The notes: generated by a model from the letters alone, not told the origin. Counted from the whole stretch's first letter, positions 10,275 through 29,222 are shown. The stretch: 40,347 nucleotides of DNA, filler included, from Mycoplasmatota bacterium (GCA_012727915.1; 4 parts of 4 records of this genome joined end to end with filler, not necessarily neighbours in it); one strand, 5' to 3'. Numbers and translations are program-made.

Positions 10275-11450
10275 GGAAAAAAGTCTACTGATTCATTAAA
10301 AAATATAGAAGAAATAAAAAAAGAATATACTGATTTAATATTAGTATTTCAAGAAAAAATAGATGTATTAACTAAAGCGCGAATAACTTATGAAAAAGAA
10401 ACACATAGAGGAGTTGAGTCTATAGCAAGCGTATCTCAAACACCAAACCCAACATCAACACCAAGCTCAACATCAACACCAAACCCAACATCAACACCGA
10501 GTGCAACGGATGAACCAATTGTAGCTCCAATATTAACACCACCACCAACCTTAGAACCAACGGATTCATCTAATATTCAAGATAATTCTTATATGCAAAA
10601 TGCAAATACTATAAAAGTTGATAATGGAATGTTACGTAACTTGGGAGTTAAATTTGATGGTGATGTTCCCAGAATGTATCAAAATGCTTATATATCTAGT
10701 TTAGGAGGAATGGATTATTTGGTTTCTTTTCCTAAAAATAATTTTGGAGAAACCCCAACAAATTTACCGGTTTTTGTTGAATTTCATGGAAATTCAGCAT
10801 CAAAAAATTGGGAAAAAGCTGGAGTTACTAACTCAACGTCGTTTAATGCTTTTATGGCGGGACCTGTTATGGGATTAAAGGCTACTCAAAATAATCCAAA
10901 TTTGCCGGCTATTATAATTATGCCACAATCTTCTGTACCTGGATTTATTGGCAATAATCTAGAAAGAGTTCATAATATTTATACCACTGTATCAAGTTCT
11001 TTAGATTCTGACAAGGCTGGTTTTAATGCTAATGTATTTAGTGCGGGTGGATCGGGTTTTTATAGATATTGTAAAGAATACTCTTCTGATGTAAAGGCAG
11101 CATATATTGTGGATCCGTCTACTTATGCTGATAAATTATCTAATGTTCCGCAAAATATACCGGTATATGTATTTACTTCAACTGATTCCGGCCCTTATAA
11201 CAGTCAGTTTTTAAAAGCTGTTGATAATTTAAATGCAAATTTAACAACACACGCTAATTTGTCAAAAGATGAACCTATTGAATTACTTAATATGATAGGA
11301 AATCCAAATTTAAATGGATATAATTTAATTAATGTTAATAATACTAAACATGAAGAATTAAGAGATTTGGTTTTTACACAAGATTTTTTTAACACTGTAT
11401 TAGCAAAAGATTTCAATCAACCAAATATGTGGATGTCCGCTTCAGAATAG
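10275..11450 (+). CDS. WXG100-like domain + P/T linker + alpha/beta-hydrolase, putative T7SS substrate, paralogue 1 (5' truncated)
   Basis: Frame of the 10593 ORF is open back to contig start (GKKSTDSLKNIEEIKKEYTDLILVFQEKID...), 37/49 aa identical to the WXG region of the next gene; hydrolase motifs LPVFVEFHG, AIIIMPQ, VFSAGG, IVDP, KH. Confidence 0.8.
   Translation, partial: GKKSTDSLKNIEEIKKEYTDLILVFQEKIDVLTKARITYEKETHRGVESIASVSQTPNPTSTPSSTSTPNPTSTPSATDEPIVAPILTPPPTLEPTDSSNIQDNSYMQNANTIKVDNGMLRNLGVKFDGDVPRMYQNAYISSLGGMDYLVSFPKNNFGETPTNLPVFVEFHGNSASKNWEKAGVTNSTSFNAFMAGPVMGLKATQNNPNLPAIIIMPQSSVPGFIGNNLERVHNIYTTVSSSLDSDKAGFNANVFSAGGSGFYRYCKEYSSDVKAAYIVDPSTYADKLSNVPQNIPVYVFTSTDSGPYNSQFLKAVDNLNANLTTHANLSKDEPIELLNMIGNPNLNGYNLINVNNTKHEELRDLVFTQDFFNTVLAKDFNQPNMWMSASE
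10440..10499 (+). repeat. 18-bp tandem repeat encoding TP(N/S)(P/S)TS linker
   Basis: acaccaaacccaacatca / acaccaagctcaacatca / acaccaaacccaacatca / acaccg. Confidence 0.85.
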
Positions 11451-11482
11451 AGTTTGTATTAAATAATAATAAAGAGGTGTTT

Positions 11483-12781
11483 ATGAATAATGTTTCAGTA
11501 GATTTAAGTAAAATGTTAAGTATTGAAAATGAATTAATTGTCTTAAAAGACAAGTTTTCAAACAAAATAAATGAAATAAATACAAGTATTGATTTAATAG
11601 ATAGTAATTGGGATGGAAAAAAATCAAATGAAACTTTAAAGAGTATAGAGGATATAAAAAAAAAATATAATGATTTGATATTAGTATTTCAAGAAAAAAT
11701 AGATGCATTAACTAAAGCAAGAACAACTTATGAAAATGAAACAAATAAAGGAGTTGAATCTACAGCAACAACAAGTCCGACGGCGACACCAAGTCCGACG
11801 GCGACACCGAGTCAGACAGCAACACCAAGCCCACAACCTCAATCAACAGTGGAAGCAACCACAAAACCCTATATGCCTACACACGATTTTTCAGGAAGCA
11901 CAGAAGCAATTGTTTTAGACAACCATGTGTTAAAAGATTTAGGAGTAGTTTTTGATGCTTCGGGAAATCCTATGAAAGTTGGAAATACATATGTAATAAA
12001 GCAACCTTATGGTAAGGGTTATAAAAACAATTTATTATATTTACCTGTTAATGAAAATGGAGATGTTCCAAAAAACTTACCAGTATTAATTGAACTTCAT
12101 GGAAATAATGAGGCGTCTAATTATATTGATGTTACTGAAATGCCTAATGTTATGGGAATTAGAGAAACAAATAATAATCCTAATTTGCCAGCAATTATCA
12201 TTATTCCCCAAGTAGATAACCCTAGATATTATGCTGATGATATAGATCCTATACATGATTACTATACTCAAGTAAAAAGTACTTTTGAAACACAGGACAA
12301 AGCCTTTTTATATGGATTTAGTGCTGGTTTGCATGGCGCAACAAAATATGCTGATAAATATGGTGATACAGATATTAAAGCCGCTGTTGTATTTGACGGA
12401 GCACCTAATAGTACAACATTAAAAAATATATCTCCAGATATTCCTGTTTTAGTAGTTGCATCCAATAATAAAATTAATGAAGTAAAAAGTACTTTTAATT
12501 ATTTAAAAAATTCAAATATATCATCTAGAGTGTATGACAGAATTGATGGGAGTCAGTTCTCTTGGTCGAAAATCGATGTTAATGATTTTAATGAATATGA
12601 TTCTGGAGATCCAAGAAATAGATATCGTTCTGTATTAGAAGATGCTTTAAATGGTAAAAATTCATCAAATGGAAATTTGAGTGTTGTAAATGTTTCGGGA
12701 GCAGGGCATGCTGCAATTAGGGATTTTGGAACTGGATCATATTTCTATGATACTGTCTTGAAAGTTTTATTTAGCAATTAA
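11483..12781 (+). CDS. WXG100-like domain + P/T linker + alpha/beta-hydrolase, putative T7SS substrate, paralogue 2
   Basis: Start ATG 11483 behind GAGGTG; N-terminal helical hairpin with central NWDG; PTATPS repeats; LPVLIELHG, nucleophile elbow GFSAG, VFDG, GAGH. Confidence 0.85.
   Translation: MNNVSVDLSKMLSIENELIVLKDKFSNKINEINTSIDLIDSNWDGKKSNETLKSIEDIKKKYNDLILVFQEKIDALTKARTTYENETNKGVESTATTSPTATPSPTATPSQTATPSPQPQSTVEATTKPYMPTHDFSGSTEAIVLDNHVLKDLGVVFDASGNPMKVGNTYVIKQPYGKGYKNNLLYLPVNENGDVPKNLPVLIELHGNNEASNYIDVTEMPNVMGIRETNNNPNLPAIIIIPQVDNPRYYADDIDPIHDYYTQVKSTFETQDKAFLYGFSAGLHGATKYADKYGDTDIKAAVVFDGAPNSTTLKNISPDIPVLVVASNNKINEVKSTFNYLKNSNISSRVYDRIDGSQFSWSKIDVNDFNEYDSGDPRNRYRSVLEDALNGKNSSNGNLSVVNVSGAGHAAIRDFGTGSYFYDTVLKVLFSN
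11772..11831 (+). repeat. 18-bp tandem repeat encoding SPTATP linker
   Basis: caagtccgacggcgacac x2 then cgagtcagacagcaacac. Confidence 0.85.
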
Positions 12782-12789
12782 TGTTTTGT

Positions 12790-12819
12790 AATAAGATTAA
12801 TGAATAATCTTATTTTTTT
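12790..12819 (+). terminator. Rho-independent terminator
   Basis: aataagatta-atgaa-taatcttatt + T run. Confidence 0.7.
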
Positions 12820-12821
12820 GT

Positions 12822-12850
12822 TTGCTTTTTAGTTCTATATAATATATAAT
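12822..12850 (+). promoter_or_regulatory. Sigma-A promoter for essC operon
   Basis: TTGCTT-17-TATAAT. Confidence 0.6.
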
Positions 12851-12889
12851 TAAATAAGATAATAGGGGTTATTTAAGGATGTGATACTT

Positions 12890-15800
12890 ATGCAGTTGTT
12901 ACTTATAAAAAAAGATAAAATCGATGTTATTAAGTTACCATCTAATATTTTTGGTAGTTATTGGATTCTAGATAAAAACATAACAAAAAAGAATCAAAAT
13001 TTAATTAATGTATTTGAAGAAAACGGAAGATGGAAAATAGTAAGCAATGAGGATAATAAAATTATCGAAAGTAATGGAATAACAGCCGAATCTTCCTTTC
13101 TTTCAGAGTACAGATTTTATTATATAAAAACAAAAGACAATATTGTTTATATATTATATGCTTGTCCGGCATATGATACTAGTACAATACAATTAGATTT
13201 TAATGAATTAAAAGAAATAAATATAGGGAAAGAAAAATCAAATGAGATAGTGTATGATTTAGAAATAATAGGTGATATAAACACAAAATTAATATTTCAA
13301 GATGAAAAGTGGAAAGTATTAGATTTAAATAGTAAATTTGGAACATATTTAAATAATAAATCTATTAAAGAGTCAGTTGTGGAAAATGGAGACATTATTT
13401 TTATTATGGGTCTGAAAATAATTGTTTTGGGGAAATCATTATTAATTAATAATCCATTTAATGTTGTTTCATATAATCAAAATATTTTTAAGTTAGCAAA
13501 ACCTGTAGTCTTTGAGTTTGAAAGAACAATCGAAGATGAAGAGAATATTGAATTGTATAAAGAGGAAGATTATTTTTCTAGATCTCCAAGATTCAAGAGT
13601 TTGATTGAAAAAGAAGTAATGGTTATAGATTCCCCACCTTCTAAGCAAAGTGCTGAAGAAATGCCATTAATATATATTATCGGACCTATGCTTACGATGA
13701 GTATGATGTCTCTAATGACTGTGTTCACTTCTTTAAACAGATATTTATCTGGAGAAGCTGAATTTAATACAGTTTTACCTTCATTAGTAATAGGCCTTGC
13801 AATGATGATTAGTATGATTTTGTGGCCTTTATTAAATAAAAAATATCAAAAGAAAAAGAAAATAGAATATGAAAAAGAAAGACAAAAAAAATATGGGGCA
13901 TATATTGATTCAAGAAGAGAACAATTAGAAGCCATATCAAAAAAACAAAGACAAATATTAATTGAAAATTATCTGCCAGCACCGACATGTGAGGTAATAA
14001 TTAATAATAAAAATAGACAACTCTGGGAAAGAAAAATAGAACAACCAGATTTTTTGGCGACTAGATTGGGTATAGGGAATACTCCTTTAGAGATCGATAT
14101 TAGGTATCCGGAATCCCATTTTTCAATGGATATAGATAATTTACAAGACGAGATAAATAGAATGGTAAATGTATCTAAAGAATTAAAAGACGTTCCAATA
14201 AGTATTTCATTTTGTGAGAAAAATTATTCTGCTTTGATTGGTAAAAGAAATTTAACAAATGATTTTATTAAAGAAATATTATTACAGTTTATTACTTTTC
14301 ATAGTTATGAGGACTTAAAATTAGTTTTTTTAATGGATGATAAGTACGAAGAAGAATGGGAGTATTTAAAAACTGTTCCTCATGTATGGTCTGATGATAA
14401 AACTATTAGGTTTTTTGCAACTACTTATGAGGAAATGAAAGAATTATCTTCAATATTAGAGCAAGAATTACAAGCAAGAATTGGTTCGGAAAACAATTCA
14501 TCAAAAGATTATAAATCTTTTATTCCTTATTATATAATAATTACAAATAATTATAATGTTTCAAAAAATATAAAAATATTAGGAGATGTATTAAAACAAA
14601 AGATTAATTATGGATATAGTGTGCTTGTAATTAATGAGACGTTATCTAATTTACCTAATGAATGTACTACGTTTATTAGTATTGATAGTAATAAAGGTGG
14701 AGTTTTTGAAAGCGAATTAATTTCTACAAAACAAAAAGAGTTTTTTCTTGATAAAGCTATATTAAATAATTTAAAACCCAGTTTAAAATTGCTTGCTAAT
14801 ACTCCAATTAAATTATCTAAAGAAATGTATTCTTTACCAAAAATATATACTTTTTTAGAGATGTTTGAGGTTGGTAAAGTTGAGCAATTAAACTCTTTAT
14901 ACAGATGGAAAACAAATGATTCTATAGTGTCATTACAAACTCCTATTGGGATAGATAGTCATGGAATGATTTCTAGATTAGATGTTCACGAAAAAGCGCA
15001 TGGTCCTCATGGTTTAATAGCGGGTATGACAGGTTCAGGAAAGAGTGAATTAATATTATCTTATATTGTTTCTTTAGCGGTTAATTATCACCCCGATGAT
15101 GTATCATTTGTATTGATAGATTATAAAGGTGGATTTTTAGTAGGAGCTTTGCAAAATAATGAAATTGGTATGAAATTACCTCATTTGGCTGGTTCAATTA
15201 CTAACCTTGATAATGTAGAAATGAATAGATCGTTATTATCTATTCAAAGTGAATTAAAAAGAAGACAAAGATTATTTAATGAAGTAAGAGAACAATTAGG
15301 AGAAAGTACTATTGATATATATAAATATCAAAAATTTTATCATGAGGGTTTGATTAAAGAACCAATTCCGCATTTATTAATAATTTCAGATGAGTTTGCG
15401 GAATTAAAAACACAACAATCAGAATTTATGGATCAATTGATAAGTACTGCTCGTATAGGAAGAAGTTTGGGAGTGCATTTAATATTATCAACTCAAAAAC
15501 CATCGGGTGTTGTTAACGATCAAATTTGGAGTAATAGTAGATTTAAAATATGTTTAAAGGTTCAAGAAAAAGCAGATAGTATGGATGTAATTAAGTCTCC
15601 TGATGCTGCTAGTTTGAAACAAGTTGGAAGATATTATTTGCAAGTTGGTTATAATGAGTATTTTTCTTTAGGTCAATCTGCATGGACGGGTGCTAAATAT
15701 TTCCCCTCAGATAAAATTAAAAAGGAAATTGATACTTCTATAGATTTTATTAACAATATTGGAACCATTGTAAAAGAAGTTGAAGAACAAAAAAACTTAA

Positions 15801-17500
15801 ATTTAAATTCTGAAGGAGAACAAATAACAGCAGTAGTAAATTATTTATCAAATATAGCTAAAAAAGAAAATATTAAAGTTAAGCAATTGTGGTTAGATAG
15901 AATACCTGATAAGGTATATATAGATAAATTAATCCAAAAATATAATTATAAAGTTGAAAAAGGAATTATTAATCCAATTATTGGTGAATATGATGATCCA
16001 TTTAATCAATTTCAAGGGGTTCTTACAATGCCTCTATCAAAAGAAGGAAACGCAATAATATATGGATCAGCTGATAGTGGAAAGGAATTACTATTAAACA
16101 GCATGATATACTCATCTATTACAAGTAATTCCGTAAATGAATTAAACTATTATTTGCTAGATTTTGGAACAGAGTCATTAAGAGTATTCACGGAGGCTCC
16201 TCAAGTTGGAGATGTTCTATATTCTGATGATGTTGAAAGAGTAAATAACATAATTAAAATGATAAAAAAAGAAATTAATAATAGAAAAAAAATATTTTCA
16301 GATTATTATGGAGACTATCAATATTATGTTAAAAATAGTGGAAAAGAACTCCCTACAATTGTTGTTGTAATAAATAATTTTGAAGCATTTCAAGAAACAT
16401 ATCCAAATTATGAAGAAGAAATTATTCAAATTACTAGAGAAGGTCCTAAATATGGAATAGTATTTGTGTTTACAGTTACTACTTCTAATTCAATAAGATA
16501 TAAATTATCTAAGAATTTTAGATTGAAGATATCTTTACAATTAAATGATGAAAATGATTATTCAAACATATTCGATAGAGTAAGAGGAAAATATCCATCT
16601 AAAGTATATGGAAGAGGTTTAATTGAATTGGATGCACTTCATGAGTTTCAAACATCTCATATAAAAGATGTTGAAGATATAAATGAATATATTATTTCAA
16701 CTTGTAACGAATTAAAAAACAAATATAAAGAACGCGCTAAAGAAGTGCTTATATTGCCTGAAAAAGTTACTTTAGAATTAGTTTCTCCATATTTTAAAGG
16801 GTTATCCTATGTTCCTATTGGTATAGAAAAGGAAGAATTAGATATTTCAACTTATAATTTTGAAAAGAATTTTACTAATATAATTACTTCACAAGATTAT
16901 TCTGGTTTTAGTAAGTTTATTAATGCGTTGATATCTCAATTAAGAAAGCAAAAAGAAGCAGATTTAATAATATTAGATAATGATGATATCTATGAAACTA
17001 GTGATACAAGTGGAATTAAATATTATAGAGCAGATCCAAATCAATTTATGATTGATTTAAGTTTGGAAGTAAATGAACAATATGATTTATATAAATCAAA
17101 TAATTATAATAAAAAAATACTAGATAAATATAAAAACAAACTAATAATAATATTGGGTATAGAGAAATTTAAAAACAGATTAACGGAAGAAAATCAAAGT
17201 TTACTGGAGGATTTCTTTTCCAAATCTCAAGAGTTATTTAAGCACATGTATATATTTGTCGAAAATGTTGACAAACTCAAGAAATTAGAATACGATAATT
17301 GGTATAGGAGTATAGTTAATACTAACCAAGGAATATGGTTAGGAAATGGCATCGCAGATCAATTTTCATTGAAACTTGTTAAAGTTGGAAAAGAGCTTTA
17401 TCAAGATATAGGAAATGGTTTTGGTTACATAGTTATTCGTGGTAATCCAGTATTAGTTAAGTTAATAGAACAAGAAAAATATGAGGGTGAAATATTATGA
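12890..17500 (+). CDS. essC: Type VII secretion ATPase EssC/YukB
   Basis: N-terminal FHA-like domains (DLNSKFGTYLN), FSRSPR, two TM helices, LWER, HGPHGLIAGMTGSGKSE, IDYKGG, DEFAEL, RIGRSLGVHLIL; start ATG 12890 behind AAGGATGTGA (GTG 12881 alternative). Confidence 0.96.
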   Translation: MQLLLIKKDKIDVIKLPSNIFGSYWILDKNITKKNQNLINVFEENGRWKIVSNEDNKIIESNGITAESSFLSEYRFYYIKTKDNIVYILYACPAYDTSTIQLDFNELKEINIGKEKSNEIVYDLEIIGDINTKLIFQDEKWKVLDLNSKFGTYLNNKSIKESVVENGDIIFIMGLKIIVLGKSLLINNPFNVVSYNQNIFKLAKPVVFEFERTIEDEENIELYKEEDYFSRSPRFKSLIEKEVMVIDSPPSKQSAEEMPLIYIIGPMLTMSMMSLMTVFTSLNRYLSGEAEFNTVLPSLVIGLAMMISMILWPLLNKKYQKKKKIEYEKERQKKYGAYIDSRREQLEAISKKQRQILIENYLPAPTCEVIINNKNRQLWERKIEQPDFLATRLGIGNTPLEIDIRYPESHFSMDIDNLQDEINRMVNVSKELKDVPISISFCEKNYSALIGKRNLTNDFIKEILLQFITFHSYEDLKLVFLMDDKYEEEWEYLKTVPHVWSDDKTIRFFATTYEEMKELSSILEQELQARIGSENNSSKDYKSFIPYYIIITNNYNVSKNIKILGDVLKQKINYGYSVLVINETLSNLPNECTTFISIDSNKGGVFESELISTKQKEFFLDKAILNNLKPSLKLLANTPIKLSKEMYSLPKIYTFLEMFEVGKVEQLNSLYRWKTNDSIVSLQTPIGIDSHGMISRLDVHEKAHGPHGLIAGMTGSGKSELILSYIVSLAVNYHPDDVSFVLIDYKGGFLVGALQNNEIGMKLPHLAGSITNLDNVEMNRSLLSIQSELKRRQRLFNEVREQLGESTIDIYKYQKFYHEGLIKEPIPHLLIISDEFAELKTQQSEFMDQLISTARIGRSLGVHLILSTQKPSGVVNDQIWSNSRFKICLKVQEKADSMDVIKSPDAASLKQVGRYYLQVGYNEYFSLGQSAWTGAKYFPSDKIKKEIDTSIDFINNIGTIVKEVEEQKNLNLNSEGEQITAVVNYLSNIAKKENIKVKQLWLDRIPDKVYIDKLIQKYNYKVEKGIINPIIGEYDDPFNQFQGVLTMPLSKEGNAIIYGSADSGKELLLNSMIYSSITSNSVNELNYYLLDFGTESLRVFTEAPQVGDVLYSDDVERVNNIIKMIKKEINNRKKIFSDYYGDYQYYVKNSGKELPTIVVVINNFEAFQETYPNYEEEIIQITREGPKYGIVFVFTVTTSNSIRYKLSKNFRLKISLQLNDENDYSNIFDRVRGKYPSKVYGRGLIELDALHEFQTSHIKDVEDINEYIISTCNELKNKYKERAKEVLILPEKVTLELVSPYFKGLSYVPIGIEKEELDISTYNFEKNFTNIITSQDYSGFSKFINALISQLRKQKEADLIILDNDDIYETSDTSGIKYYRADPNQFMIDLSLEVNEQYDLYKSNNYNKKILDKYKNKLIIILGIEKFKNRLTEENQSLLEDFFSKSQELFKHMYIFVENVDKLKKLEYDNWYRSIVNTNQGIWLGNGIADQFSLKLVKVGKELYQDIGNGFGYIVIRGNPVLVKLIEQEKYEGEIL

Positions 17501-20859: not shown

Positions 20860-20959
20860 NNNNNNNNNNNNNNNNNNNNNNNNNNNNNNNNNNNNNNNNN
20901 NNNTTAATTAATTAANNNNNNNNNNNNNNNNNNNNNNNNNNNNNNNNNNNNNNNNNNNN
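20860..20959. other. Artificial contig linker
   Basis: N44-TTAATTAATTAA-N44. Confidence 0.97.
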
Positions 20960-20960
20960 A

Positions 20961-21230: not shown

Positions 21231-21291
21231 ATATCTTTTTTTATAGAGGGAATTATTATTATTACTCCAATAAACAATTAGGAGTGATAAT

Positions 21292-23277
21292 ATGTTTAGA
21301 GTAAAACAAAGAGATTCTAATGATTGTGCAGTAGCATCTTTGCTTTCTATTATAAAGTATTATAAGGGGAACATATCTTATAATAAACTTAGATTAATGA
21401 TGAAATGTGATAAGAGTGGAGTAAGTGCATATGATTTAATAAATACTGCGAAGAAGGTGGGTTTTAATTCTTATGGTATTAAATGTAATTATGATAATTT
21501 AAGTAATGTTAAATTACCTTGTATTGCGCATATTACAGTTAAAAAATATTATGATCATTTTGTTGTAATTGAAAAAATACATAACAAAATATATATTAAT
21601 GATCCTTATTATGGGAAAAAGAAATATAAAAGAAATGAGTTTGAAAAGATATGGAATAATATATTAATTATATTAGAACCAGTATCTGAACTATCTAAAG
21701 AATTTAATCATAAAAGATATTATTTAGAATTAATATATAAATATAAAAAAGATATAATCGTTTTAGTAATAATATCTTTAATTACGATAATACTTTCAAT
21801 AATTGGCTCTTATTATTTTAAATCATTAATAGATAGTAATAAATACATAGTTTTTTTAACTTTTTCGATAATATTGATAATAAGAATAATCTTAGAATTT
21901 ATAAGAAATAAAGTAATGATATTTATTGATAAAACAATAGAAAAAGATCTAATGTATGAGTCTTTTAATAACACGTTATCACTTCAAGAACAATATTTTA
22001 TTAATAGGCAAAATGGAGATATATTAAGTAGATTAAATAGTATAGATAGTATAAAAACATTAATATTTAAAATACCTTTTTTGTTTATGATTTATTTTTG
22101 TATAGTAGTATTTTGTTCTTATGTTTTAATTATTATAGATTTAAATTTATTTATTAAGGTGTTTATTTTATTGATTTTATATTTTATAATTTATCTTATT
22201 TTTTATAAAAAAAACAATAACATGATAAAAAGTATTAATGAAGAAAAGGGTTATGTTAATGGGTTTTTATATGAATCAATAGATGGATTAGTTACTATTA
22301 GAAATAATAATATAATAAGAAATAAGAATAATGAATTTAATGTTATATATTCCAATTATTTAAATATAAAAAATAATTTTAATGATTTCTTTAATTTTCA
22401 AAATACACTGAAAAGTTTGTTATTGTATTTATCTTTTAATTATATATTATATCTCAGTTCAATTTCATTAAATATTAGTAATATTATTTTGTTTTATTCT
22501 CTTTTTATTATGTTGATTGATGCTTTTAGAAATATATTTGAATTAGAAGAGGATTTTAGTAATGGTTTGGTAGCTATAAATAGAATAGATGAATTAATAT
22601 CTACTGATTATGAATATGGTTATAGTTCTTCTAAAATAGAAAGCATTATGTTTGAAGACGTTAGTTTTGCATATAAAAATGATAAATATATAGTTAATAA
22701 CTTAAATTTAAAAATAAATGGAAACGATAAATTGTTATTAAAGGGTAAAAGTGGAAGTGGAAAAACAACAATATTTTATTTGTTATTAAAATATTATGAG
22801 GTTGATAAAGGTAAAATAATTATTGGGGAAGAAAATATAAATAATTGGAATTTAAATAGTATAAGAGATAATATATATTATGTTTCTTCAAGTGAGAAAA
22901 TATTTAGAGGTACTTTGATAGATAATATTTCTTTTGATAATAAAGATATGAGTAGGATAGATTTATTGCTAAAACTTGTAAATTTGGAAAAAGATATAAA
23001 TATGTATATAGAAGAAGATGGTAATAATTTAAGTTTAGGTGAAAAATCCAAACTATTATTATGTAGAGCATTGTTTAGTAATAGAAATGTTTTAATTATA
23101 GATGAATTATTAAGTAATATTGGAATAGAAGAAGAAAATATAATATTAAATAATATAATAGATTTATATAAAAATAAGATACTAATATATACTTCACATA
23201 GAAATATAAATGAAAATCTATTTAATAAAATATTAAATTTAGAAAAGAAGGAGGTTAATTATGAAAACATTGAATAA
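21292..23277 (+). CDS. Peptidase C39-containing ABC transporter (PCAT, ComA/BlpA/LagD-like)
   Basis: QRDSNDCAVASL (catalytic Cys), HFVV, INDP; TM domain; Walker A GKSGSGKT, LSLGE, IIDE, SHR. Confidence 0.93.
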   Translation: MFRVKQRDSNDCAVASLLSIIKYYKGNISYNKLRLMMKCDKSGVSAYDLINTAKKVGFNSYGIKCNYDNLSNVKLPCIAHITVKKYYDHFVVIEKIHNKIYINDPYYGKKKYKRNEFEKIWNNILIILEPVSELSKEFNHKRYYLELIYKYKKDIIVLVIISLITIILSIIGSYYFKSLIDSNKYIVFLTFSIILIIRIILEFIRNKVMIFIDKTIEKDLMYESFNNTLSLQEQYFINRQNGDILSRLNSIDSIKTLIFKIPFLFMIYFCIVVFCSYVLIIIDLNLFIKVFILLILYFIIYLIFYKKNNNMIKSINEEKGYVNGFLYESIDGLVTIRNNNIIRNKNNEFNVIYSNYLNIKNNFNDFFNFQNTLKSLLLYLSFNYILYLSSISLNISNIILFYSLFIMLIDAFRNIFELEEDFSNGLVAINRIDELISTDYEYGYSSSKIESIMFEDVSFAYKNDKYIVNNLNLKINGNDKLLLKGKSGSGKTTIFYLLLKYYEVDKGKIIIGEENINNWNLNSIRDNIYYVSSSEKIFRGTLIDNISFDNKDMSRIDLLLKLVNLEKDINMYIEEDGNNLSLGEKSKLLLCRALFSNRNVLIIDELLSNIGIEEENIILNNIIDLYKNKILIYTSHRNINENLFNKILNLEKKEVNYENIE

Positions 23278-23398
23278 TGAAGAATTGAAAAATATAAATG
23301 GGGGAATTAGTTTTGGTTTATTAGCTCTTTTAGGAGGCGCAATTACATTTATAATTGGTATTCTTGATGGATTAACTAGACCATTAAAATGTAGATAA
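23261..23398 (+). CDS. Double-glycine leader peptide 1 (45 aa; class IIb bacteriocin-like)
   Basis: AGGAGG RBS; MKTLNNEELKNINGG|ISFGLLALLGGAITFIIGILDGLTRPLKCR; missed by ORF track. Confidence 0.92.
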   Translation: MKTLNNEELKNINGGISFGLLALLGGAITFIIGILDGLTRPLKCR

Positions 23399-23414
23399 AA
23401 AGGAAGGAGGAATA

Positions 23415-23579
23415 ATGATACTTTTAAATAATGAAGAATTAAAAAATATAAATGGGGGAAGTATTTCTGGTACACTAATAAGTTCTATAGTAAAAGGAAT
23501 AAGTTTGATTTTTGATTTAGGAAGATCTTTAGGAAGTGCGATATATAGATTAGTAAATAAAAAATGTTGTAAAGCATAA
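23415..23579 (+). CDS. Double-glycine leader peptide 2 (54 aa; class IIb bacteriocin-like)
   Basis: AGGAGG RBS; MILLNNEELKNINGG|SISGTLISSIVKGISLIFDLGRSLGSAIYRLVNKKCCKA; missed by ORF track. Confidence 0.92.
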   Translation: MILLNNEELKNINGGSISGTLISSIVKGISLIFDLGRSLGSAIYRLVNKKCCKA

Positions 23580-23606
23580 AAAAAGAACAAGGTTACTTGT
23601 TCTTTT
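23578..23606. terminator. Bidirectional terminator between peptide 2 and pilus ATPase
   Basis: aaaagaacaag-gtta-cttgttctttt with A flank. Confidence 0.8.
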
Positions 23607-24978
23607 AAAATAAGTCTTCAGGAGTATGAGCATTAGGAATATCTTCTTTTTCGGGCAATTCCACATTTTTTGTTTCGTTAACAATTTTTGCTTGTGGTTT
23701 GTTATCAGTATTAATATCAGCGTTATTTGCAATTTCAACATCATCTAAAGCTTTATCAAGATTATATTTATAATCAGACATTTTTCCATCGACATCATCA
23801 TCTAATTCGATTAATTTAACAACTTCTTCCATAGTTGTAATTCCATCTAAAACTTTTAATAAACCATCTTGTAATAAGGTAGTAACATTTGATGTATAAA
23901 CTAATTTTCTTAAACTTTCTTTTCTTACATTTCCCGCAATGGCATCTCTAATTTCTTGAGTAATAACTAATACTTCGTGAATTGCAATACGACCTCTATA
24001 TCCTTTTGAACATTCACTGCATCCTTGAGGGACATATATTTCATTTACTTCTTTATTTAGAACCTTTCTAAATAAATTCTTTTCATAATCATTAGTTTGT
24101 TTTTTAACTTTACATTTATCACATAGTCTTCTTGCTAATTTTTGAGATATAACTCCTTTTAATGCACTCGCTAATAAATATCTTTCAACTTCCATATCAA
24201 GTAAACGTTCTATCGTATTTAATGAGTTATTAGTATGTATTGTAGATAATACCAAGTGTCCTGTAATAGAAGCTCTTACTGCTATTCTAGCTGTTTCGTT
24301 ATCACGAATCTCTCCAACCATTATTACATTTGGATCTTGACGCAATATAGAACGTAGAACGTGCGCAAAGTTTAAACCAATATCACTATTAACTTGTATT
24401 TGATTAATACCTTCTATATCCATTTCTATAGGATCTTCAACTGTAATTATGTTTCTTTCTGGTGAATTTAATCTTTGAAGAATAGAATATACAGTAGTAG
24501 ACTTTCCGGTACCAGTAGCACCTGTTACTAATATAATTCCATTTGGAACTTTAATCAATTCTTCTAGTTTGTTATAATTTGAAGGAGTAAAACCTAGATT
24601 ATCTATACCTTTAAGACTCATAGAATAATCTAATATACGAACTACTATTTTTTCTCCATTACTAGTTGGTACGCAAGATACACGGAGATCTAAATCTAAG
24701 TCTTTTAATTTTGTTTTAATAGAACCATCTTGTGGAAGACGAACTTCAGTAATATTCATTCCTGAGATTATTTTAATACGAGTTATTAAGTTCTTTTTTA
24801 ATGTATTAGGAACTTTGGAATAATCTTGTAGTTGACCATCTATACGAATTCTAACTTTCATATATTCAAAAAGCGGATCAAAATGAATATCACTCGCATG
24901 TCTATTCGCAGCATCAACAATAATTTCATTTACTACTTCAACTATAGGTAGTTTTTCAAAATCAAATTCTTTTAACAT
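23605..24978 (-). CDS. pilB: Type IV pilus/T2SS assembly ATPase (PilB/GspE/ComGA family)
   Basis: ASDIHFDP, RLPQDG, Walker A GATGTGKST, TVEDPIE, LRQDPNVIMVGEIRD, TGHLVLSTIH, CDKC/CSEC zinc site; likely start ATG 24978. Confidence 0.92.
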   Translation of the reverse strand: MLKEFDFEKLPIVEVVNEIIVDAANRHASDIHFDPLFEYMKVRIRIDGQLQDYSKVPNTLKKNLITRIKIISGMNITEVRLPQDGSIKTKLKDLDLDLRVSCVPTSNGEKIVVRILDYSMSLKGIDNLGFTPSNYNKLEELIKVPNGIILVTGATGTGKSTTVYSILQRLNSPERNIITVEDPIEMDIEGINQIQVNSDIGLNFAHVLRSILRQDPNVIMVGEIRDNETARIAVRASITGHLVLSTIHTNNSLNTIERLLDMEVERYLLASALKGVISQKLARRLCDKCKVKKQTNDYEKNLFRKVLNKEVNEIYVPQGCSECSKGYRGRIAIHEVLVITQEIRDAIAGNVRKESLRKLVYTSNVTTLLQDGLLKVLDGITTMEEVVKLIELDDDVDGKMSDYKYNLDKALDDVEIANNADINTDNKPQAKIVNETKNVELPEKEDIPNAHTPEDLF

Positions 24979-25075
24979 ATTTTCCCCATTCTTATTCAAA
25001 ATTTTATTATTCCATTTATTATAAAAGTATTATATAATATTAATTATAGAATAGCAAGAAGAGTGGAGTAATAAA

Positions 25076-27121
25076 ATGAAAAAAAAGGGTGAAAAAGGTT
25101 TTTTTGTAGTTGAAACAATTGTAGTAATTGCTATTGTATCCATTGTAATTACTTATGTTTTTGTTAATTTTTCTAACACTTATAATAGATTTATAGTTAG
25201 TGAAACTTATAATAATATAAATGCTACTAATGCAGTTTTAAATTTAAAAGAATATGTAGATAATTGTGATATAGATTTTTCTGCAACTTTAGATACAAAA
25301 GACTATTTAGAATTGTCTTCTATTACTAAGGTTAGTTCAAATTATTATAATAAACTAAAAGAATATTTAAAGATAAAAACTGCTTATTTAATTAATACTG
25401 AAAACTTTTTTTCAAACGCTAATAATATGAATTCTTTTGATATAAAATTCCAAAATTATTTGGACACTCTTTCTATTGTAAAAAGTAAATATATTATAGT
25501 TATAGAACTAGAGAATTTAAATTATGGATATATATCTATTTATAACTATAATTTAGAATTGGTTGGTGAATCTGACAAAGATTATGTTACTTATGTAAAA
25601 GTTGGAGATGATTTTATTGAACCGGGATATACTGCAGAAGATAAAAATGGGAAAACTTTAGATGTATATATAACTGGTTTTGTTGATACGAGTATAGAAG
25701 GAACTTATTACTTGACATATACTTTACAAGATATTATTTCAAGAAGAAAAGTAGTTGTTTATGAAGATGTTTATGATTATGATTATACGGGTAATTATCA
25801 AGTATTTAGAGTGCCTGTTTCTGGTACTTATAAGGTTGAATTATGGGGTGCAAGTGGTGGAAAACCAGTAGCAAATACTACTGCATCAAAGGGAGGTTAT
25901 TCAACTGGTGAAATTTATTTAAATGAAGGAGATACTTTATACTTATATGTTGGTCAAGCAGGTAGTTTAGGAACTTATGGAGTTAATGCGACTTCAACTG
26001 TAGGTCAGGGAGGTATTGCTACTTTTAATGGTGGTGGTGCTGGAGGAAATGCAGGAGGAAGTATAACTTATCCTTACGCTAACTATAAGGGAGGACCTAG
26101 TGGGGGTGGAGCAACAGATATTAGATATTTATCAGGAACTTGGGATAATTCATTAAGTTTAAGAAGTAGAGTAATGGTTGCTGGAGGAGGAGGAGGCTTT
26201 TCTTCATCTGATGCTGGGTATGATGCTCAAAAAGGTAACTCTGGAGGATTAACAGGGCAAAATGGAGCAGTAGATGCTTATTTAATAGGAGCATATGAGG
26301 GAGATGTAATTAATAGAGGAGTAGGAGCTACTCAAACCACTGGAAATCTATTTGGAATAGGAGAAAGAGGAGACAACACTGGAACTTCAACATATTGTAA
26401 TGGACATGCTGGTGGTGGTGGTGGATATTATGGAGGAACTGGCGGAACCCAAACAGGTGGAAATTGTCATATCATGGGTGGCGGTGCTGGATCATCTTTT
26501 ATATCTGGTTATACTGGAGTAAACGCTATAAGAGTAGACGGAACTCATAGTGGAACAACAAAACATTTCTCGGGTTATGTTTTTGATAATATGGTTATGT
26601 ATAGCGGAACTCAAACCTTTTTAAGTCCGGCTGGAGTTAATGAAACTGGTCATACTGGAAATGGATATGCTAGGATTTCATTAATTGATCCAAATCAAAG
26701 TAATACTTTAAGTAAAGTAAGATATATATATAATGAAATGAATGGAAGTACATCTAATCAATCGTCTCATTGGGTAGAATTACAAGCTTATGATATTAAT
26801 GGAAACAATGTTTCTCAAGGTGTAACAACAATTACTAATAATTATTTAGGTGCGGTTGATTTAACAAGATTAACCAATGGTAACGTTGCAACTGCTGAAT
26901 ATATTGAGGGTGGAATTGGAGTATCTTTTGTTATGCTTGATTTAGGAAAAGAATATGATTTGTCAACTATTAGATTATGGCATTATTATGGGGATGGAAG
27001 AACTTATTATGATAATATAGTTAAGGTTGCAGGTAATGATGAATTGTTTAGAGTTGTATTAGATGAAGAATATCCTGAAACTAGTCATGGAAAAATTATA
27101 AGACCAGAAAGTATAGATTAG
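25076..27121 (+). CDS. Pilin-like protein with Ig-like (DUF5011-type), glycine-rich and discoidin-like domains
   Basis: Type III signal KG|FFVVETIVVIAI; EPGYTAED..G..VDT..EGTY; SGTYKVELWGASGG...GGGATDIR...RVMVAGGGGG; DLGKEYDLSTIRLWHYY. Confidence 0.85.
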   Translation: MKKKGEKGFFVVETIVVIAIVSIVITYVFVNFSNTYNRFIVSETYNNINATNAVLNLKEYVDNCDIDFSATLDTKDYLELSSITKVSSNYYNKLKEYLKIKTAYLINTENFFSNANNMNSFDIKFQNYLDTLSIVKSKYIIVIELENLNYGYISIYNYNLELVGESDKDYVTYVKVGDDFIEPGYTAEDKNGKTLDVYITGFVDTSIEGTYYLTYTLQDIISRRKVVVYEDVYDYDYTGNYQVFRVPVSGTYKVELWGASGGKPVANTTASKGGYSTGEIYLNEGDTLYLYVGQAGSLGTYGVNATSTVGQGGIATFNGGGAGGNAGGSITYPYANYKGGPSGGGATDIRYLSGTWDNSLSLRSRVMVAGGGGGFSSSDAGYDAQKGNSGGLTGQNGAVDAYLIGAYEGDVINRGVGATQTTGNLFGIGERGDNTGTSTYCNGHAGGGGGYYGGTGGTQTGGNCHIMGGGAGSSFISGYTGVNAIRVDGTHSGTTKHFSGYVFDNMVMYSGTQTFLSPAGVNETGHTGNGYARISLIDPNQSNTLSKVRYIYNEMNGSTSNQSSHWVELQAYDINGNNVSQGVTTITNNYLGAVDLTRLTNGNVATAEYIEGGIGVSFVMLDLGKEYDLSTIRLWHYYGDGRTYYDNIVKVAGNDELFRVVLDEEYPETSHGKIIRPESID

Positions 27122-27128
27122 GTGATTT

Positions 27129-27659
27129 ATGAAAAGATTAAATAATAAAGCTTTTTCTTTAGTTGAATTACTTGTAGCTTTTACTACAATTACAGTATTA
27201 TCTTTTGCAATATTTAGAACTGTTATAAGTATTCAAAGAAGACAGCTAATTAATATTGCGTATAATGATTATGTTGTCTTTCAAAGTTCTGTAAATAATT
27301 TAGTTCAAAATGATTTCACTAATAAAGTAATTGAGGCAGTAGAATACTGTGGAAAAAATTGTTATAAAATAAAATATATTGGTGAAATTGAAAAAACTTT
27401 ATCTATTAATACTAATGATAGCACTTTATCTTATGGTAATGTGTCAAATGCCGTAAAATTAAAGCTACCTAAAACATTTACTTTTTATAGAGATATAGAA
27501 CAAAAAGATGAGAATTTTACTGATGTTGAAGAAGATAGACATGATTCTTTAATATTGTTTAGAATTCCTATAAAAAGTACAATTGTTGATAAAGATTTAG
27601 ATATTATATATATTTATCAATTTGATAGTAGAAAAAATCCTGTAAGACCAAATATATAA
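27129..27659 (+). CDS. Minor pilin / pseudopilin
   Basis: KA|FSLVELLVAF prepilin cleavage-methylation motif. Confidence 0.88.
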   Translation: MKRLNNKAFSLVELLVAFTTITVLSFAIFRTVISIQRRQLINIAYNDYVVFQSSVNNLVQNDFTNKVIEAVEYCGKNCYKIKYIGEIEKTLSINTNDSTLSYGNVSNAVKLKLPKTFTFYRDIEQKDENFTDVEEDRHDSLILFRIPIKSTIVDKDLDIIYIYQFDSRKNPVRPNI

Positions 27660-27677
27660 TAGTAAGGAGTTGAAATT

Positions 27678-29222
27678 ATGAATAATAAAGGCGCAATATT
27701 TTCTGGATACATGTATGTATTGTTAGTGTTCTTTTTACTTTCTTTATCAACTTTATTAGTAGTTTTAAACAACTCTAAAAAAGTAAGCAATAAGGCTAGA
27801 GAAGGTGCTGAAAATATTATTGAAAATGATACTACTGAATTTAATTTGAGTCTAAATGGAAATACTACAGTATGTATTAATTTAGGACAAACATATTCTG
27901 ATTTAGGTGTTGTTTCAAAAGATTCTATGGGAAATGATGTTCCAGTTACTATTGTATCAGATTTAAATATTAATCAAATCGGAGAGTATACTGTTACTTA
28001 TACTGCTAAAGATAAGGGTAAAGAAAAAAGTATTGAAAGAAAAGTTAGAGTAATAAAAAATGATTATGTTTACATGGGAGCATCAGAAGAAATTACTTTT
28101 TATTGTGATGGATATTATCAAGTTGAATTATGGGGTTCTGATCATTCAAATGGGCTTGGTGGTTATACAAAAGGAGTTATTAATTTAAAATCTAATGAAA
28201 AACTTTATCTTTTTGTTGGTCAATTAAGTACTGTAGGAAATGCTACAGCTTTTAATGGAGGAACAGGAAGTTCTGGTGGATATCCTGGAGGTGGAGCAAC
28301 AGATGTTAGATTACTTAATAAAACTTGGAATGATTTAGAGTCTTTAAAATCAAGAATTATGATTGCGGGTGGTGCTGGTTCCGGTAATGTTCAATATTCT
28401 CATGGTGGAGGTCTTATTGGTCAAAAATCGGGTATTGCTACTGCAGGAACTCAAACTGCACCCGGAGTTAATCAAAGCGTTTCATATTTAGCTCCTTCAT
28501 TTGGAATTGGAGGAGGAGGCTGCGGAGGTGGCGGTGGATACTATGGTGCAGGTGGAGCAACATGTGTAGATGGTGGAGCTGGAGGATCAGGTTTTGTGTC
28601 AGGACTTGCGGGAGTAAATGCAATTACTAATGACTTAACTATTACTCATACAAATAACACACTTCATTATTCTGGTAAGTATTTTATTGATTCAATAATA
28701 GAAACGGGTAAAGTTGAACCTGATAGACTTACTGCATCTTCTGGTAAAGCAAAAATTACATATATAGGCACTGAATACCCTAAAACAAATACTAGTTTAG
28801 AAAGTGTAAGATATGTAAAAAGTTGTACAAATGGAAATTCAGTAAATGTATACAATAGTTGGGTAGAATTACAAGTAATTAAAGATGGAGTTAATCTTGC
28901 GCTTGGAAAAACTCCAACAGGTACATCTCCTGAAGCATCGGGATTGGAATCATATAATTTTATCGTGGATGGTATGATAGATAATTCAACTTGGACTACT
29001 GGATATGGAAGAAGTAGTTTAAATGGTAATCAATGTGTAACTATTGATTTAGGAAAAGTATATGATGTTGATGAAATTGCTGTTTGGCATTATTTTAATG
29101 ATGGAAGAACTTATACAGATAAAGTAGTGTCAGTTTCTTCTGATAATGTATCTTGGGCAGGAGTAATTATAGGAACAGGAGCAGAAACTCCTAATGGTTC
29201 TAGAGTTAATGCATGGAATTAA
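27678..29222 (+). CDS. PilX/GspK-like (no Glu5) pilin with Ig-like, glycine-rich and discoidin-like domains
   Basis: MNNKG|AIFSG + hydrophobic helix; GEYTVTYTA; GYYQVELWG...GGGATDVR...SRIMIAGG; DLGKVYDVDEIAVWHYF. Confidence 0.8.
   Translation: MNNKGAIFSGYMYVLLVFFLLSLSTLLVVLNNSKKVSNKAREGAENIIENDTTEFNLSLNGNTTVCINLGQTYSDLGVVSKDSMGNDVPVTIVSDLNINQIGEYTVTYTAKDKGKEKSIERKVRVIKNDYVYMGASEEITFYCDGYYQVELWGSDHSNGLGGYTKGVINLKSNEKLYLFVGQLSTVGNATAFNGGTGSSGGYPGGGATDVRLLNKTWNDLESLKSRIMIAGGAGSGNVQYSHGGGLIGQKSGIATAGTQTAPGVNQSVSYLAPSFGIGGGGCGGGGGYYGAGGATCVDGGAGGSGFVSGLAGVNAITNDLTITHTNNTLHYSGKYFIDSIIETGKVEPDRLTASSGKAKITYIGTEYPKTNTSLESVRYVKSCTNGNSVNVYNSWVELQVIKDGVNLALGKTPTGTSPEASGLESYNFIVDGMIDNSTWTTGYGRSSLNGNQCVTIDLGKVYDVDEIAVWHYFNDGRTYTDKVVSVSSDNVSWAGVIIGTGAETPNGSRVNAWN

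Follow-up and report, generated by a model that had tools for sequence, protein, structure and literature searches.

A C39-ABC transporter and two double-glycine peptides as an order-wide, apparently undescribed module in Mycoplasmatota

The DNA considered here, referred to as the window, is a stretch of 40,347 nucleotides, filler included, from the genome of Mycoplasmatota bacterium GCA_012727915.1, and its subject is a small operon in which a peptidase-containing ATP-binding cassette (ABC) transporter (PCAT) is followed by two short genes encoding double-glycine peptides, A and B. The first-pass annotation, made from the sequence alone, had taken the pair for an undescribed two-peptide bacteriocin family, acting on distant taxa or as a signal and lacking immunity, accessory and sensor genes. 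The features of the locus are as follows.

21245-21274, plus strand: predicted sigma-H-type promoter (-35 block 21245-21253, 13-nt spacer, -10 block 21267-21274)
21292-23277, plus strand: PCAT gene, 661 aa, with C39, membrane and ATPase domains (Pfam)
23261-23398, plus strand: peptide A precursor, 45 aa (leader at 23261-23305, then a mature part of 30 aa that is hydrophobic and contains G-x-x-D-G and P-x-x-C)
23415-23579, plus strand: peptide B precursor, 54 aa (leader at 23415-23459, then a mature part of 39 aa that is amphipathic and cationic, contains D-x-G-R-x-x-G and has a Cys at its C-terminus)
23581-23606, no strand assigned: intrinsic-terminator-like hairpin (fold -12.8 kcal/mol, z -5.3)
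23605-24999, minus strand: PilB/GspE-type pilus ATPase, a converging neighbour outside the operon (T2SSE, E 4e-125)

The PCAT gene starts 17 nt downstream of the -10 block of the predicted promoter, the open reading frame (ORF) of peptide A overlaps its end by 17 nt, and a GGAGG ribosome site precedes each of the two peptide ORFs. The hairpin comes directly after peptide B, where a terminator had been noted; it was called by the terminator scanner on the minus strand only and, lying between the operon and the converging PilB/GspE gene, probably acts in both directions. In the transporter, Pfam recognizes Peptidase_C39 (E 2e-33), ABC_membrane and ABC_tran, and Cys12, His89 and Asp104 as well as the Walker A and B motifs are identifiable. 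Among 91 related PCATs, the Cys pattern, which served as the selection criterion, is present in 91/91, the His in 86/91 and Walker A in 90/91. C39 domains cut after Gly-Gly, and the precursors of A and B would be expected to be cleaved at this position.

The leaders of A and B are 15 residues each and end in Gly-Gly; the last 11 residues are identical, in agreement with the shared leader reported at first, and 32 of the 33 underlying nucleotides are the same (23273-23305 versus 23427-23459). Within the 873-kb genome, the double-glycine leader pattern is found in short frames only at the sites of peptides A and B, the sole further match sitting within a 601-aa frame, so the two leaders are not a product of chance. 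Profile searches with A and B revealed no further copies of either in this genome. Across 125 loci, the A and B leaders of one genome resemble each other more closely than those taken from different genomes (0.50 versus 0.42 for amino acids, 0.49 versus 0.44 for third codon positions), which may reflect gene conversion or a joint adaptation to the transporter. Mature A (23306-23395) has 30 residues, a net charge of +2 and a grand average of hydropathy (GRAVY) of 1.29, while mature B (23460-23576) has 39 residues, is amphipathic and carries a net charge of +5, and the description as a hydrophobic 30-mer and a cationic amphipathic 39-mer is therefore accurate.

That the peptides are unannotated is true of their mature parts and not of their precursors. 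Precursor A passes the cut-offs of the NCBIfam models TIGR03949 and TIGR01847, and precursor B that of TIGR01847; the cut-offs of NF038034 and NF038035 are not reached, and 5 of the 120 A relatives listed bear the name 'class IIb bacteriocin, lactobin A/cerein 7B family'. The close identity to a characterized bacteriocin that the first-pass annotation had allowed for was not found, as 0/18 mature A and 0/18 mature B sequences match any NCBIfam bacteriocin model. Moreover, Pfam has no family for the two mature peptides of this genome, no solved structure in the PDB is matched (best E 0.68 and 0.59 for the mature peptides), and the nearest 30 clusters in the ESM Atlas share no common Pfam family. 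The bacteriocin-family matches of the precursors appear to come from the leader and not from the mature part. No published description of the A/B family was found in a survey that left subscription papers and supplements (e.g., that of PMC10868615) beyond its scope. The proposal of an undescribed two-peptide family is supported.

The GxxxG motifs noted earlier in both peptides are widely kept (A, 124/131 loci; B, 132/132), with an acidic residue ahead of the second Gly of A in 109/131 and Arg or Lys behind the first Gly of B in 103/132. Peptide A has the layout of a hydrophobic helix with a G-x-x-D-G...P-x-x-C end, peptide B that of a helix, amphipathic and cationic, which bears D-x-G-R-x-x-G and has a Cys at its end, and an Asp(A)-Arg(B) pair may form across the GxxxG faces. 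The C-terminal cysteines pointed out in both peptides are conserved as well, in 128/130 loci, and in the exceptions they are lost together: locus L020 has no such Cys in either A or B, and locus L145 has two A/B pairs, the second of which is without the Cys tail in either peptide. In locus L018, A is truncated before the Cys and B was not found in that genome. The three concordant cases are suggestive of a link between A and B, although homodimers, metal binding or acylation would equally conserve the residue. Prediction of the complex of mature A and B with alignments scored 0.07 against a mark of 0.32 and speaks neither for nor against pairing. Among RNA reads, which are uninformative, one run contained 0.07 of the words, and three runs gave only short pieces, none of them over the peptide genes. 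Additional double-glycine peptides are present in the cluster at L104, L140, L145 and L020.

The conservation and synteny that had been put forward as a check are pronounced. In the order, which its small genomes, its single dominant family and the code-4 mollicutes of its class lead us to infer to be RF39, the peptide B profile matches 193/201 genomes (~96%) and 97/98 genera, nearly always as a single copy and with one borderline match (E 1e-3), while spoIVA, present in 178/201 genomes, is rarer. In a class-level sample of 351 genomes, B was found in 44/44 genomes of this family and in 1/1 of another (G030), with nothing in 26 other families, and the B family was not found on 50,697 phage and 72,556 plasmid records. 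All 24 family relatives (24/24) have a full-length PCAT orthologue with the same peptide pair behind it. Of the 133 loci analysed, 131 have A, 132 have B and 130 have both, the count for B being partly by construction because L001-L027 were picked by transporter and nearly all others by a B match; A stands ahead of B in 130/130 loci having both. The relatives of A number 830 at E<=1e-5, and those of B form 491 clusters at 50% identity. Over 86 loci, the median identity to the copies of this genome is 0.46 for A, 0.43 for B and 0.33 for PCAT, with mature A closer than PCAT in 75/86 loci and mature B in 74/86; pN is below pS in 21/21 within-genus pairs. These values point to purifying selection, and A and B appear to be an obligate pair. 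PCAT, A and B are an order-wide single-copy core module and no sporadic bacteriocin island.

In the same class-level sample, one code-4 mollicute family gave weak matches to the B profile in 7/22 genomes. They were rejected as members of the family, as they cover only profile positions 1-32, the leader region, the one examined is a 130-aa ORF, and full-length PCAT had no match in 3/4 of the searched code-4 genomes with such matches. The ORF in question (L061:4039-4431(-), code 4) has a double-glycine leader and a B-like start and lies upstream of rplU, in a genome with no full-length PCAT match.

The absence of immunity, accessory and sensor genes is correct for this genome and cannot be extended to the many relatives that have an accessory gene and a third gene. 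An accessory ORF of 114-162 aa lies between the transporter and A in 44/79 scorable loci (47 by gap size), and the product in one relative, among 11 tested, matches MAG1140 weakly (E 0.003). The third gene, peptide C, encodes ~42-70 aa with a basic N-terminus, a membrane segment and G-x-x-x-G-T-x-x-R, and its ORF abuts or overlaps the stop of B in 51/133 loci (52 with one weak seed), e.g., L037:1343-1507(-); in this genome the hairpin occupies this slot. Peptide C has no Gly-Gly leader, and HHalign identifies it as a homologue of B's C-terminal half (93.6%, E 2e-7, 29 columns). In a whole-genome search it was found in at least 60/201 genomes of the order, the sister family included, a lower bound given a ceiling of 33 scored candidates in each genome; neither the locus nor the whole-genome search gave one in this genome. 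On a FastTree tree of the 91 transporters, the state of peptide C changes 12 times, and at least 10 of these changes are forced by well-supported branches. Peptide C is dispensable, and the missing accessory and third genes here are lineage-specific absences. Because peptide C occupies the immunity-gene slot of class IIb and cibABC operons, a natural guess is that it is a membrane-anchored candidate for decoy immunity by mimicry of B. One CPBP/Abi protease, unlinked to the operon, is encoded in this genome and could in principle serve as an immunity factor.

Upstream of PCAT, a two-block motif (R-R-A-G-G-A-A-W-T, 12-14 nt, N-S-A-A-T-A-W-W) resembling the sigma-H consensus of B. subtilis is present in 56/77 regions, and on leaving one out, 51/77 PCAT regions remain above the 95th percentile of shuffles. 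With a matrix trained on PCAT promoters only and a score >=9 taken as a match, the motif was recovered in 12/22 held-out PCATs (11/21 without a duplicate of a training genome), in 13/21 comEA regions, these being the filter-passing members of 35 comEA/comEC loci, and in 4/331 other control genes, making comEA the most consistently co-marked gene among those scored. In this genome, 16/872 ORFs reach the threshold, with PCAT at 18.7 (the top of the 872, its site belonging to the training set), dnaG at 16.1, a penicillin-binding-protein-like gene at 13.1, comEA at 13.0 and comK at 10.3. The operon appears to share a promoter type with comEA-comEC and not with the pilus genes. ComK-box half-sites are inconsistent (PCAT training, 19/72; held-out, 4/22; comEA, 2/21; others, 22/331). 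The SigH profile finds one SigH-like factor (G000:C22:7505-8098) and one SigA-sized protein in this genome, and SigH would be the factor reading the PCAT/comEA motif. Strong copies of the motif also precede dnaG at G000:C43:2957-4681(-) and in L062, scoring 16.1 and 16.6; sigma-H promoters exist in the sigA operon of B. subtilis, with which a motif at dnaG is in line.

As to the genomic background of the hosts, ComEC is found in 5/5 genomes, ComK in 41/41 family genomes and ComEA in 41/41, in 39 of them in ComEA-sized frames. DprA was detected in 1/41 family genomes and 0/5 at E 0.01, and ComF, PurD and PyrD in 0/5 each, the control genomes being positive for all four. The retention of ComEA, ComEC and ComK with DprA and ComF missing apparently amounts to a DNA importer lacking the recombination-loading arm. 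RF39 is described as highly reduced and auxotrophic (PMC6784871, PMC12306168), and DNA uptake in the nucleotide-auxotrophic Liberibacters is reported as a precedent (PMC8513845).

On these grounds, the action on distant taxa already suggested for the pair is the best reading of the module, and in the form that we prefer, to which we give a little less than an even chance, A and B make up a two-peptide pore of the CibAB kind, with which the producer would lyse non-kin cells to obtain DNA and nutrients. SigH would turn on the operon together with comEA-comEC, and PCAT would cleave both leaders and export A and B, which could then pack through their GxxxG faces, the Asp-Arg pair and perhaps a disulfide between their C-termini. 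The assembled pair would permeabilise the membranes of neighbouring non-kin bacteria, and the DNA and metabolites released would be imported as food by the co-induced ComEA and ComEC, the DNA being eaten more than recombined. The producer would be intrinsically insensitive, with peptide C, where kept, acting as a membrane-anchored decoy for A. A fuller version, in which the order keeps a disulfide-linked two-peptide pore as housekeeping equipment and fires it along with a DNA importer devoid of recombination so that other bacteria serve as food, the anchored peptide copy providing decoy immunity, is rather unlikely.

Several points weigh against this predatory interpretation. Only the genes, their conservation and the motif are observed, and from cleavage onward the steps are ones that we infer. 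Order-wide conservation is unusual for an arms-race weapon and would suit a structural component just as well. The immunity candidate was not found in 141/201 genomes, this one included, so intrinsic insensitivity of the producer is an extra assumption. The gene absences are drawn from incomplete genomes (this one is 93.8% complete), those of ComF, PurD and PyrD from 5 only. The SigH-like protein falls below the cut-offs of its family. In this genome, pilB (-2.7), recA (-1.9) and 8 prepilin-like genes (<=2.2), spanning -4.6 to 2.2 overall, have no motif, while dnaG and the penicillin-binding-protein-like gene score as high as comEA, and the motif may therefore be that of a broader transition-state regulon. 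The enrichment at comK is weak (8/30, p 0.012), and p-values overstate the case in general because kin genomes are not independent.

In anatomy, the pair is closest to the class IIb bacteriocins (lactococcin G/enterocin 1071, lactobin A/cerein 7B), with which it has in common double-glycine leaders, two adjacent genes, an adjoining PCAT, GxxxG in both peptides, one hydrophobic and one cationic amphipathic peptide, and, for A, a match above the cut-off of TIGR03949. Unlike the named class IIb families, its mature parts match no bacteriocin family, its terminal Cys is conserved and none of its members was found on plasmids or phages; in place of an immunity gene directly downstream, a terminator directly follows B. 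The best NCBIfam models for the transporter, NF045998 and TIGR01193, are both below cut-off. The former describes the Mbov_0121-family PCAT of Mycoplasma, whose neighbour is of the MAG1140 family (NF045999), and with 273.4 bits against a cut-off of 500 the PCAT here is not a member. A PCAT of the Mbov_0121 type is core in one code-4 mollicute family (19/19; L220-L233), mostly beside a YbeY-like gene as judged by eye, and no A-, B- or C-like ORF lies within ~1.5 kb in 14/14 of these loci.

This related core transporter, together with the near-universal single copy of the peptides, a conservation above that of their transporter, the failure to find a protective gene in most genomes and the co-regulation with comEA, is what speaks for a structural role, in which the A/B pair would sit in the producer's own envelope or bridge producer and host cell as part of an uptake apparatus or a cell-cell junction, with C as an optional anchor. 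We nevertheless regard this as unlikely, as the peptides are built like class IIb killers, a membrane protein that mimics B and fills the immunity slot is best read as protection, and no uptake machine is known to employ double-glycine peptides.

The other close parallel is provided by CibABC of S. pneumoniae and CabABC of S. mitis, exported by ComAB. CibAB and CabAB are two-peptide bacteriocins induced by sigma-X (PMC5295010, PMC13059744), and the systems resemble the present one in combining a pair of double-glycine peptides with a third, small membrane protein and a C39-ABC exporter; if the sigma assignment made here is right, the use of one alternative sigma factor for the bacteriocin and for DNA-uptake genes is a further likeness. 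The resemblance is one of layout and, presumably, of control. Here, in contrast, the exporter lies within the operon, the module is core to a whole order instead of one species, many loci do without the third gene, which is itself a peptide B paralogue, and a Cys is conserved at the end of either peptide; neither DprA nor ComF was found, and there is no ComDE-type sensor. From the same layout, kin fratricide for transformation can be proposed, in which induced cells lyse their non-induced siblings and recombine the DNA. It would agree with the control by an alternative competence sigma factor, as in CibABC (PMC5295010), and with the presence of ComK, ComEA and ComEC. Of the traits of a CibABC-type fratricin, the promoter motif is shared with comEA (13/21 versus 4/331) and not with pilB, the prepilins or recA, and neither a co-encoded immunity protein nor the full transformation set with DprA and ComF was found. 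Fratricide needs self-immunity, yet peptide C is in only 60/201 genomes with at least 10 state changes on the PCAT tree, and we consider this explanation improbable. Lysis directed at non-kin, as preferred here, has a precedent in CabAB, which lyses another species on contact (PMC13059744).

Similarly little credence is given to an ordinary bacteriocin of the stationary phase, driven by SigH and functionally unconnected with DNA uptake. The motif does occur before dnaG and further genes unrelated to competence, and the pilus genes and recA are without it; however, comEA is the most consistently co-marked gene scored, and A/B is core, whereas the usual class II bacteriocin has a patchy distribution and varies. 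In S. mitis, for instance, cibABC is carried by 26.9%, and there are 95 Cab variants (PMC13059744). Control of competence by SigH has parallels: SigH transcribes comG and comE in S. aureus (PMC3486894) and controls com genes in L. sakei (PMC3364868). In common with them, a SigH-like factor is found here in a non-sporulating genome, with the motif upstream of comEA-comEC; they differ in that SigH induces comG there, and in L. sakei dprA as well, while here the pilus genes are without the motif and dprA was not found.

The signal role suggested initially finds weak backing. A quorum or competence pheromone pair of the ComAB/ComC kind would need no immunity and would suit the ComA/ComB-like exporter, the accessory gene (47/79 loci by gap size) and the link to competence genes. 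The AgrC-type kinase and LytTR regulator of ComAB/ComC and Blp/Agr-type systems were not found, however: neither this genome nor G001 has an AgrC-type kinase domain (3/5 genomes have one), 5/5 genus genomes are without a LytTR regulator, and the next-downstream ORFs that were listed for related loci include no sensor gene. Species-specific pheromones are also unlike two long, hydrophobic peptides conserved across an order, and this explanation is held to be quite improbable.

A sporulation factor, for example a replacement for the SpoIIIA mother-cell/forespore channel, is hardly credible and the channel role was rejected, even though SigH also governs entry into sporulation, SpoIIIAE is found in 0/5 genomes and GerM-, SpoIIIAH-like (by eye) and SpoIVB neighbours occur in some loci, since B is kept in 21/23 genomes without spoIVA, this genus among them, and the SigH profile search gave no further sporulation sigma factors in this genome. 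RF39 is predicted largely to sporulate (PMC10868615). A divergent Spo0A-like protein (137 bits, cut-off 200) is encoded at G000:C23:23013-23717 in this genus without spoIVA, and G030 has two Spo0A copies.

As a rule, bacteriocin genes are accessory and patchily distributed. The A/B pair is commoner in the order than spoIVA, a core sporulation gene, and so does something that its hosts can hardly drop. A promoter shared with comEA, in genomes without DprA, ComF and markers of nucleotide synthesis, makes the 'DNA as food' role of competence testable, and through two peptides of 30 and 39 residues the lifestyle of an abundant uncultured gut lineage becomes testable too. If the housekeeping-pore version were true, a nucleotide-auxotrophic order of guts and digesters would consist of obligate micro-predators or epibionts, and its resistance to pure culture would be explained. 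Moreover, the 491 B clusters and a candidate immunity-by-mimicry protein are a ready system for work on antimicrobial peptides. The two-peptide module is real, order-wide and apparently undescribed.

Around the operon, the PilB/GspE neighbour is kept in 7/7 genus loci and in L020. The window is a scaffold joining several contigs (C70, C74, C75 and C76 among them), and the contig of the operon begins at 20960, after a gap at 20860-20959, so synteny is not proven for the genes to its left. In loci of the same genus, a DUF2179/PRK04164-type gene lies upstream of the operon, which argues that no operon gene is hidden in the gap. Elsewhere in this genome, L234:4621-12627(-) holds a cluster of TrbL- and TcpE-like genes, a TraG/VirB4-type ATPase and an M23 peptidase, with the promoter motif (12.1) at the TcpE-like gene; this cluster and the many prepilins recall what we take to be the toolkit of epibiotic bacteria. 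Within the window, 11429-17500 encodes a WXG100-like protein (weak, E 0.006) and a 1539-aa FHA and FtsK/SpoIIIE protein, a type VII-like secretion locus, and at 25076-29222, divergent from pilB, two glycine-rich (ALK_LTK_GRD) Ig-like surface proteins lie on both sides of a prepilin-type gene.

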